53,003 bases of DNA, taken from Kiloniellales bacterium (GTDB lineage Bacteria; Pseudomonadota; Alphaproteobacteria; Kiloniellales; JAKSDN01). Both the position numbers and the translations under genes were made by a program. Shown piece by piece: positions 31,990-38,291 of the stretch (within the stretch, counting starts at the first letter, position 1; each line of letters opens with the position of its first letter). The stretch lies in contig JBHJOF010000004.1 of NCBI GenBank assembly GCA_050330055.1, positions 1 to 53,003 of the forward strand, in the 5' to 3' direction. The notes below the pieces were generated by a model that had not been told where the DNA came from, ran no database searches, and saw only the letters and a program-made list of their open reading frames with translations.

Positions 31990-32048
31990 TTGCCATGGCG
32001 TCCGGCTCGTCTATAAGGACGTGCTGGTTCGAGTCCGGCCAGGGGCAC
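31990..32048 (+). pseudogene. internally deleted copy of the tRNA-Leu(CAA) locus (upstream leader plus 3-prime 34 nt only)
   Basis: 31990-32014 (ttgccatggcgtccggctcgtctat) matches 38167-38191 at 22 of 25 positions. 32015-32048 (aaggacgtgctggttcgagtccggccaggggcac) is identical to 38256-38289. The intervening 64 nt, including the acceptor 5-prime strand, D-arm and anticodon arm, are absent. Confidence 0.8.
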
Positions 32049-32070
32049 AACGACCCGCTCGCCGGCCCGC

Positions 32071-33219
32071 CTAGAGGCCGAGCCAACCGGCGACGATGTT
32101 GCGCTGGATCTCCGAGGTGCCGGAGTAGAGGCGGCTGCCCACCGCATCGCGCAGCGCCCGCTCGACCTCGTACTCGGTCAGGAAACCGTAGCCGCCGAAC
32201 AGCTGGATCGTGTCGAGCGCCGCGCGGAGCAGGGACTCGCTCACGAACAGCTTCGAGATCGAGGCATCGAGAGACACGCTCTTCGAGCGCTCGAGGTTCC
32301 ACGCTGCCTTGTAGGTCAAGAGGCGCGCCGCCTCGAGTTGCACCTTCATGTCGGCGATCTTGTGCGCTACCGCCTGAAAGGTGGCGATCGTCTTTCCGGA
32401 CTGCCGCCGGGTGCGGGCATAGTCGATCGCCCTTTCGATCAGCCGTTCGATAGTCCCGACGTGGGTGGCGAAGAGACAGCTGCGCTCCCATTCCATGGAA
32501 TGGACGAACAGTGGTGCGCCCGCCCCGACGCCGCCCAGCACGGCCGCGGCCGGCACGCGCACCTCCTCGAACAGCAGCTCGCTGAAAGGCGAGGTGCGCA
32601 GGCCCATCTTCTCGAACTTCTGGCCCACCCGGTAGCCGAGCGTGTCGCGCTCGACGATGAAGGCGGTGATGCCGCCATGGAAGCCCCGCTCAGGGTCGGT
32701 GACCGCAAACACGAGGGCAAGGTCGGCGACCGGCCCGTTGCTGATGAAGGTCTTCGTGCCGGTGATGCGAAAGCCGTCGCCGTCGGGCTCGGCGCGGGTA
32801 CGGAGCGCAAAGGCATCGGAGCCGGAGCCCGGCTCCGTCATGGCATTGGCGGCGATCAGGCGGCCGTCACACAGACCAGGCAGATAGCGCTGCTTCTGTT
32901 CCTCGCTTCCGAACTTCCAGATCGGCACGACGCAGGACAGCAGGTGCGCCGCGACCGAGAAAACGAGACCGGAGTCCTCGCAGCCATAGCCGAAGGACTC
33001 GAGGGCGATCGCCGTCGACAGGGAATCGAGGCCCGCGCCGCCGTACTCCGCCGGCACCGGCAGGCCGGTCAGACCCATCTCGGCACAGGCCTGCCACAGT
33101 TCGCGCTGGAACAGCTGGCCGCGATCGCGCTCGATCATCCCGTCGTTCAGCTTGGCCCGGGCGAAGCGCGTAATCTCGGCGCGCAGGATTCGCTGCTCCT
33201 CGCTCAACGCGAAATCCAT
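32071..33219 (-). CDS. acyl-CoA dehydrogenase family flavoenzyme (probably acts on a carrier-protein thioester)
   Basis: 382 aa with the full ACAD fold blocks (AMTEPGSGSD, FISNGPVADL, GYGFLTEY). The MCAD-type catalytic Glu position reads YSGTSE (Ser366). A Glu is present at the IVD-type position (MEWERS, Glu245). The start overlaps the ligase stop (TGATG). Confidence 0.85.
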   Translation of the reverse strand: MDFALSEEQRILRAEITRFARAKLNDGMIERDRGQLFQRELWQACAEMGLTGLPVPAEYGGAGLDSLSTAIALESFGYGCEDSGLVFSVAAHLLSCVVPIWKFGSEEQKQRYLPGLCDGRLIAANAMTEPGSGSDAFALRTRAEPDGDGFRITGTKTFISNGPVADLALVFAVTDPERGFHGGITAFIVERDTLGYRVGQKFEKMGLRTSPFSELLFEEVRVPAAAVLGGVGAGAPLFVHSMEWERSCLFATHVGTIERLIERAIDYARTRRQSGKTIATFQAVAHKIADMKVQLEAARLLTYKAAWNLERSKSVSLDASISKLFVSESLLRAALDTIQLFGGYGFLTEYEVERALRDAVGSRLYSGTSEIQRNIVAGWLGL

Positions 33220-37701: not shown

Positions 37702-38204
37702 GCACGCGGGTGCAGCTATGCGGTCCTGAACCAGCCCCGATTAGGCACCGGACCAGCATCCAGAGCATGCTCGGGATGCTTCGGCTCCTCCCGCGCGGTG
37801 GCGCTCGCTCCCGGCATTTATTGCCGCCCGTTTGAGGCGCCAGGGCCCTTCTATGGGCCGACGGACGCAGAAGTCCGCCGCCAGCCTGGGCGCTTCGCCG
37901 AGCCTCTCCCTTTTATCAGCTTTTGCCCATTCCGCAATCACTTGAGCGCGACCGATTCTGCAAGTGCCTAAAGCACCGGACCTTTTTTGGCGAGCACCAG
38001 AGGACCCTGCGTCAGCACGGCGTTGGACCGGCGACACCGGACCTGGCCGGGACAGGAGGAGCAGGGACAGGGCAACCCGCCGGGCGCTCGCCCCATGCCG
38101 TGCCGCGCGACTGCGCCGCCGACGAGCTTGATGTGCGGGGAGCCCGGCTTCTGGCCGCTTGCCCGGTTGCCATGGTGCACGGCTCGTCTATGATGCCGGC
38201 CCGT

Positions 38205-38291
38205 GCCCCTGTGGCGGAATTGGTAGACGCGACAGACTCAAAATCTGTTGTCCGCAAGGACGTGCTGGTTCGAGTCCGGCCAGGGGCACCA
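38205..38291 (+). tRNA. tRNA-Leu, anticodon CAA, CCA encoded
   Basis: Hand-folded cloverleaf: acceptor gcccctg/caggggc, anticodon stem acaga/tctgt with loop ctCAAaa, a long variable arm (class II), T-arm gctgg ttcgagt ccggc, discriminator A, then CCA. Confidence 0.9.

Follow-up and report, generated by a model that had tools for sequence, protein, structure and literature searches.

We examined a complete 53,003-bp metagenomic contig of a Kiloniellales bacterium from a stromatolite metagenome (JBHJOF010000004.1 in assembly GCA_050330055.1), hereafter the window, in which a four-gene cassette lies between a broken and an intact copy of one tRNA locus. The sole tRNA gene in the window is a tRNA-Leu(CAA) gene with an encoded CCA end, found by ARAGORN and Rfam on the plus strand at 38205-38291, where an earlier first-pass annotation of the same DNA had placed it. 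A remnant of this gene lies 6.2 kb upstream in the same orientation, at 32015-32048 on the plus strand, and is identical to 38256-38289 in all 34 nucleotides. The segment between is filled by four minus-strand genes, as that annotation had described. These encode a flavoenzyme of the acyl-CoA dehydrogenase (ACAD) family, an amino-acid adenylation enzyme, a small carrier protein and an MBOAT-SGNH membrane protein.

Of the tRNA gene, the remnant keeps the T arm, the 3′ acceptor strand and the discriminator base, flanked by half of the variable arm and the first C of CCA. It is directly abutted by 31990-32014, a stretch that matches 38167-38191 at 22 of 25 positions. What has no left counterpart is exactly the 64 nt of 38192-38255. 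The two-part left copy and its 64 missing nucleotides had been read correctly at the first pass, down to the nucleotide. The 34-nt and the 25-nt patterns each occur exactly twice in the 53-kb window and never in 100 shuffles.

Window position 32049, just past the remnant, is A, while the sister strain represented by contig L010 has C there (its position 2617). The repeat in L010 is thus 36 of 36 nt and ends exactly at the encoded CCA. The strain sequenced in run X1 probably also carries the remnant with the full CCA end. The left repeat matches no RNA family, as Rfam finds the tRNA only, and the remnant fragment shows no significant fold, so we rejected the idea that it is part of a known RNA gene. 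In runs X1 and X2, the tRNA-Leu of other community members is identical in its 5′ part from 38202 on but has a different leader (...CCATGATCGCCGACCGCTTAATTCGGCTCG), and at least one community contig in these runs matches through the tRNA 3′ end at 38291 and then continues into a different trailer, CGTCACCCCGCAGC....

The 25-nt stretch, first taken as a leader, is a tRNA promoter. Its similarity is real but its extent had been drawn too short, since gapped alignment extends the homology to 31966-32014 versus 38144-38191, with 39 of 49 positions identical and one gap. The right promoter copy (38144-38204, plus strand) has TTGCCA-16-TATGAT at 38167-38194, with 10 of 12 matches to the consensus in a consensus scan, and a short leader after it. 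The left copy, aligned at 31966-32014 on the plus strand, keeps TTGCCA as its -35 element (31990-31995) and the 16-nt spacer. Its -10 element reads TATAAG at 32012-32017 because the 64-nt deletion joins TCTAT to AAGGACG of the variable loop. This element is without the invariant last T, and the left promoter therefore appears weakened.

The homology between the two tRNA loci begins at the 3′ foot of a hairpin that follows right after the stop codon of the SnoaL gene. Folding places this hairpin at about 31896-31975 on the plus strand, with 24-nt arms at 31897-31920 and 31952-31975 that are rich in TCAGA/TGACA motifs (dG -33.3 kcal/mol, z -2.9). It is probably the terminator of SnoaL or a repetitive extragenic palindromic (REP)-like element. 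A palindromic element likewise lies between SnoaL and the tRNA in one relative (L012). At the other end of the segment, an unstranded non-coding spacer of 442 bp (37702-38143) separates the operon start from the right tRNA promoter region. It matches nothing in Pfam or Rfam and presumably contains the operon promoter. Compared with the relatives' intergenic DNA, the spacer and the trailers show no similarity, and only the tRNA itself matches.

The arrangement is real. Contig L010 comes from an independent metagenome-assembled genome (MAG) at NCBI (GCA_964470315.1) and its 4857 bp are 99.94% identical to 29433-34289, with 3 single-nucleotide polymorphisms (SNPs), one of them at 32049. This contig continues without a break from COQ7 past SnoaL, the remnant and the ACAD gene into the adenylation gene. 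In run X1, Logan unitigs pass over the promoter-fragment and the fragment-ACAD junctions, each at about 10x, and one unitig leads from the MBOAT gene through the spacer and the right promoter into the tRNA 5′ part. The unitig depth in this run is 10-12.6x, equal in the flanks and the insert, and the 35-nt unitig common to both tRNA copies reaches 21.6x, about twice the flanks. L010 settles the linkage on the left, and that on the right follows from it.

An assembly artefact would be a contig chimera, joined via tRNA sequence common to many community members. Such a join is suggested by the more than 10x excess depth that other organisms bring to the tRNA region and by the breaking of k=31 unitigs at the repeat. 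The two junctions are nonetheless spanned by unitigs, the independent MAG contig passes from SnoaL through the fragment and the ACAD gene to the adenylation gene, and a single unitig connects the MBOAT gene, across the right promoter, with the 5′ part of the tRNA. Moreover, a de Bruijn mis-join is unable to create a 64-nt internal deletion, and we consider an artefact hardly credible. Excised or empty-site joints were not found at 98% likeness in the k=31 contigs of the source runs, where rare forms and linkage across the 34-36-nt repeat are invisible.

For the flanking genes, even the closest homologues reach no more than 60-70% identity. The gene order COQ7-DsbB-DedA(VTT)-SnoaL occurs in a Kiloniellales MAG (L012/L013), in Pelagibius sp. 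(L015) and in TARA scaffolds (L096 and L097). In L012/L013, L015 and L097 a tRNA-Leu(CAA) gene comes after SnoaL on the same strand, 235 nt downstream of it in L012 and behind a cold-shock-domain (CSD) gene in L015 and L097. Neither the cassette nor an extra tRNA fragment is present in these loci. By tblastx, the left-flank synteny ends at SnoaL (31.9 kb), and the right-flank order protease-CSD-SBP-ABC transporter resumes at 38.7 kb, where it is common with L002 and L005.

Because SnoaL leads to tRNA-Leu(CAA) in the relatives, the remnant marks the ancestral tRNA position, and 32049-38143 is an insertion relative to order-level relatives. The synteny comparison that the first-pass annotation had proposed thus gave relatives without the 6.2-kb segment, rather than the same segment in all of them. 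The cassette-free relatives are of the order level only, and the single strain-level relative, L010, carries the cassette; none closer was found in any collection searched. A genome-contig scan for synteny via the downstream protease gave one weak match, no tRNA stands beside the nearest protease homologues (70% and 60% identity), and the promoter pattern had no match in JGI metagenome contigs.

What follows SnoaL differs from relative to relative: the tRNA directly, a CSD gene and then the tRNA, the ribosomal L35-L20 genes, or the remnant and the cassette. With this varied order in L012, L015, L096, L097 and the window, the interval between SnoaL and tRNA-Leu looks like a local hotspot of rearrangement or insertion.

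The cassette, read on the minus strand throughout, ends next to the remnant. The stop codon of the ACAD gene (32071-33219) is 22 nt from it, in convergent orientation. By profile and structure-database sequence matches, this flavoenzyme is closest to the prolyl-carrier-protein dehydrogenases AnaB (4irn; 392 bits, 2.4e-116), PigA (5zw0; 320 bits) and RedW. It stays below the NCBIfam equivalog cut-offs, with 458 versus 500 bits for PigA and 431 versus 650 bits for RedW. The stand-alone adenylation enzyme (33219-34787), assigned by sequence matches, resembles LgrA module 2 (436 bits) and the prolyl-AMP ligase PltF (353 bits) more than it does DltA (about 200 bits). The carrier gene (34784-35056) is recognized by its PP-binding domain and encodes about 90 aa from MDMPAIK.

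The promoter-proximal gene (35104-37701) encodes a membrane protein of 865 aa, or 844 aa from the database-called start. This protein has no sequence match in the PDB and no Pfam MBOAT match. Its AlphaFold model (AF2, pLDDT 84) is more telling, as the top Foldseek matches of the N-terminal membrane part are DltB structures (8jem and 6bug; E about 1e-6, TM 0.55-0.60 on target). The C-terminal part matches SGNH esterases in Foldseek and is an SGNH/GDSL domain, and all of 42 homologues keep the columns of its candidate catalytic His, Ser, Asn and Asp.

The cassette had been called Dlt-like at the first pass, which holds for the DltB fold of the membrane protein, while the extra enzyme resembling prolyl-carrier dehydrogenases is foreign to Dlt systems. 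It shares with the Dlt system (DltA, DltC, DltB and DltD) an adenylating enzyme, a small carrier and a DltB-fold MBOAT, and has, in the place of DltD, an SGNH domain that may or may not be its orthologue. Unlike in that system, the MBOAT and SGNH parts are fused in one 865-aa protein, and the host is a Gram-negative alphaproteobacterium without teichoic acids. All the DltA and DltC models stay below cut-off, the two DltA models at 272 and 268 bits versus 476 and 560 and the DltC model at 33.9 bits versus 68.

The other likeness is with the prolyl-carrier oxidation triads (PltF/PltL/PltE, PigI/PigG/PigA, RedM/RedO/RedW and AnaC/AnaD/AnaB), which also combine a stand-alone adenylation enzyme, a carrier and an ACAD-type dehydrogenase; PltF is the best stand-alone match of our adenylation enzyme. 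The cassette differs from them in its scores below the equivalog cut-offs and in having a membrane MBOAT-SGNH transferase instead of downstream polyketide synthase or non-ribosomal peptide synthetase genes. From these homologies, an amino acid, possibly proline, would be loaded on the carrier and then oxidized by the flavoenzyme. The MBOAT part would pass it across the membrane and the SGNH domain would transfer it to an extracytoplasmic acceptor. The cassette thus probably serves to decorate an envelope component with an oxidized amino acid. A match of the carrier model for ornithine-lipid acyl carrier proteins (NF052616) was rejected as a pathway marker, since it scores 90 versus a cut-off of 130 bits and OlsH is an unrelated GH3-like enzyme.

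More than 3,400 proteins from many phyla belong to the membrane-protein family, and dozens of unrelated metagenomic contexts share the four-gene order (L007, L008/L009 and many of L016-L095). This recurrence in many phyla supports mobility of the cargo. In 84 loci with a homologue of the membrane protein, tRNA genes are rare and none is tRNA-Leu(CAA), so a general association of the cassette with tRNA genes was rejected. In the plasmid collection, a 1.39-Mb Microvirga record carries the sole full-length homologue of the membrane protein. A limited search of the literature turned up no published description of the four-gene cassette.

A composition shift inside the segment had also been claimed, from four hand counts of G+C that are all exact on recount. 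It stands for the 865-aa gene and fails for two of its partners. The membrane-protein gene has a third-position G+C content (GC3) of 0.75 and a codon-usage distance B of 0.36, against about 0.90 and 0.15-0.22 for native genes of similar length. The ACAD gene (GC3 0.88, B 0.19) and the adenylation gene (GC3 0.87, B 0.19) are native-like, and the carrier gene (GC3 0.80, B 0.45) is too short to judge. Only the 865-aa gene, and perhaps the gene for the carrier, hence shows the shift.

Homologous cassettes elsewhere do not have such a split, their membrane gene being only 0-5 GC3 points below its partners. This suggests that the operon is a mosaic or that the promoter-proximal MBOAT-SGNH gene has a separate history. 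The CSD gene of the right flank (39727-40305, minus strand; GC3 0.77, B 0.44) serves as a warning that low GC3 here is no mark of foreign origin. It is a core gene, syntenic with L002, L005, L015 and L097, and yet has the second-largest codon-usage distance in the window. With an equally strong outlier among the core genes, composition says little for or against transfer.

The two repeats have diverged unevenly. The promoter part differs at 10 of 49 positions, while the 36 nt of the tRNA part show no difference in L010 and a single one in the window (Fisher p = 0.004 and 0.02, respectively), so uniform decay of a dead duplicate is unlikely. Over the same 36 nt, this organism differs at 5 positions from Pelagibius or L097. 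The promoter spacers of L015 and L097 are unrelated to either copy, with only the TTGCCA and TATGAT hexamers conserved, whereas the left and right spacers are identical at 13 of 16 positions. Therefore, both copies come from the same or very close lineages. Either the joining of the two is recent, or both still worked until a short time ago. The strain SNP at 32049, in the former CCA, fits relaxed constraint at present.

Probably, two full copies of the tRNA locus once existed and one was then deleted in part. This fits the history of duplication and deletion that the first-pass annotation had offered as one of its two options, as the left copy is a promoter and gene minus 64 nt at the site where the relatives have their tRNA. 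The reading that we prefer goes further and has a probability of about 0.4: a horizontally acquired, integrase-free insertion arose at the native tRNA-Leu(CAA) locus by a single crossover with circular DNA and was followed by the 64-nt deletion. The data show the two copies, the deletion, the ancestral position, the cassette-free relatives and the lack of a recombinase, from which we infer the circle, the single crossover and the sequence of events. Such an integration is matched by the promoter region and tRNA on both sides of the insert, with boundaries at the homology ends, the left copy bearing the secondary deletion.

The ancestral order would have been COQ7-DsbB-DedA-SnoaL, the promoter and tRNA-Leu, and the downstream genes. 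The donor would have been a circular DNA with the Dlt-like/prolyl-carrier-dehydrogenase cassette and its own tRNA-Leu locus, from a closely related lineage, the tRNA near-identical and the promoter region about 20% diverged. The circle would recombine once with the chromosomal tRNA locus, by homology or an equivalent duplicative event of the Campbell type. This would leave a full promoter and tRNA copy on each side of the insert, in direct orientation, with the repeat boundaries where the homology ends, on one side about 49 nt before the 3′ end of the promoter and on the other at CCA. At a later, recent date, the loss of 64 nt from after TCTAT of the -10 element to the variable loop would have killed the upstream copy at the ancestral position, and the downstream copy would be the working gene now.

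Campbell-type integration is known from suicide plasmids and some plasmid-chromosome cointegrates. As in those, the shared segment is directly duplicated around the insert, the boundaries are at the homology ends and no site-specific recombinase is needed. The present case differs in that the event is read from its traces, no vector backbone is present, the homologous segment is only about 136 bp and 64 nt of one copy are lost.

Several points weigh against the single-crossover insertion. No circular form, donor locus, plasmid or integrative and conjugative element backbone is detectable. With no closer relative, the true empty site of SnoaL, promoter, tRNA and protease is not seen, and either promoter copy could be the native one. 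The contigs used are k=31 only, so read-level linkage across the repeat and rare excised forms are beyond their reach. Two of the genes, for ACAD and the adenylation enzyme, are native-like in codon usage, only the MBOAT-SGNH gene is atypical, and the core CSD gene equals it as an outlier. Composition thus neither dates nor proves transfer, and the operon may be a mosaic. Lastly, an origin in situ with long coexistence of two functional tRNAs explains the identity pattern equally well.

Such an origin would be a paralogous duplication, either a tandem tRNA duplicate or a long target duplication in an illegitimate insertion, with the cassette between the copies. Both tRNAs would have long been functional, their promoters drifting by about 20% and the tRNAs held identical by selection or gene conversion, until the upstream one was recently lost by the 64-nt deletion. 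Selection on both tRNAs would then account for the uneven identity (p = 0.004), and the 13/16 identity of the spacers, far closer to each other than to those of L015 and L097, the -35 TTGCCA kept in both copies and a long residence of the native-like ACAD and adenylation genes all accord with it. What it leaves to chance is the landing of the cassette exactly at the duplicate joint, with CCA on one side and the start of the promoter homology on the other, a placement that a single crossover gives for free. Also, none of the four relatives' loci has a tandem tRNA-Leu, and the MBOAT-SGNH gene is still strongly atypical (B 0.36 versus 0.15-0.22 for native genes of that size). We therefore hold the in-situ duplication to be possible but rather doubtful.

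The tRNA-Leu(CAA) gene, known as leuX, is an island site in enterobacteria, and degenerate islands without integrase are known. A tyrosine-recombinase element could have entered the tRNA 3′ end across the 34-36-nt repeat, its integrase and most of the element being deleted later. The perfect repeat is indeed the 3′ part of the tRNA, ends at CCA in L010 and has the typical extent of an att core, and the segment is absent at the orthologous site in order-level relatives. In this respect the locus resembles the tyrosine-recombinase islands at E. coli leuX and selC and those fed by tycheposons in Prochlorococcus (bioRxiv 10.1101/2020.12.28.424599), which have foreign cargo adjoining a tRNA, a direct repeat of the tRNA 3′ end and absence from related genomes. 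The geometry is nevertheless reversed. When an element integrates site-specifically at the 3′ end of a tRNA gene, the intact gene stays on the upstream side and the 3′ fragment is displaced to the opposite end of the island (bioRxiv 10.1101/2020.12.28.424599). Here the fragment precedes the intact gene and is joined to a copy of the promoter.

A second promoter copy on the fragment is not producible by recombination at a 3′ core; the repeat there is the att core, and here it is the whole locus, promoter and gene, with an internal deletion. No integrase or other recombinase is among the four genes filling the segment. The open reading frames (ORFs) of the 442-bp spacer and around the remnant give no Pfam match even at E<=1, by which an integrase remnant in the non-coding ends was rejected. 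The 34-mer matches none of the viral contigs, the synteny of the relatives is continuous on both flanks, and the cassette homologues in the 84 loci are not tRNA-linked. The unusual geometry and the lack of an integrase, both noted at the first pass, are borne out, with a promoter-bearing fragment upstream and no recombinase domain. The old island whose recombinase was lost, offered there to explain them, has against it the reversed geometry, the missing recombinase remnant and the cargo family that is elsewhere not linked to tRNA, and such an island appears improbable.

Whatever its origin, the loss of the native copy may have a consequence for the cassette. Only the 34-36-nt tRNA 3′ ends are perfect repeats through which the cassette could be deleted. 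A crossover between these would take away the promoter and the 5′ part of the sole intact tRNA-Leu(CAA), with the dead remnant staying behind. The tRNA would then be a kind of hostage: as cassette loss costs the cell a tRNA, deletion of the native copy would stabilize a recombinase-free insertion. We think this very unlikely. In a weaker variant, the remnant promoter may still drive an RNA of the tRNA 3′ half, antisense to the operon end.

Recombination at the locus would leave recognizable junctions. A right-type trailer (TTATCTTG...) with a left-type promoter and an intact tRNA is the empty site expected under a single-crossover insertion with a foreign right promoter. The left promoter joined to GATGCCGG...tRNA is the junction expected if the insert is lost via leader recombination. 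The tRNA 5′ part with the 36 nt joined to CGACCCGC is the junction expected of a circle or a tandem.

In our view, the segment is a genuine though rather commonplace sign that genes were acquired at a tRNA locus, unusual in its layout and devoid of a recombinase. We class it as an atypical form of recombinase-free acquisition, in which a pseudo-tRNA with a promoter stands at the ancestral site and the replacement copy downstream. As such, it offers a clean natural example of foreign genes settled at a tRNA locus without a site-specific recombinase. The footprint left behind, a pseudo-tRNA with a promoter ahead of the working gene, mirrors the pattern sought by island-finders. Those among them that require an integrase or a downstream 3′ fragment would miss such insertions. 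The cargo, a widespread and uncharacterized cassette, may matter more than the scar.

Two minor observations concern the left flank. The 488-aa ORF at 29580-31046 (minus strand) is over-extended, and the gene calls in L010 give COQ7 (199 aa), DsbB (182 aa) and DedA/VTT (184 aa) over 29580-31441. In the Kiloniellales relative, as found in one sample (L014, 873-2405), a 510-aa reverse-transcriptase (RVT_1) gene lies beside DedA in the place of DsbB-COQ7, and it probably belongs to a group II intron or a retron.

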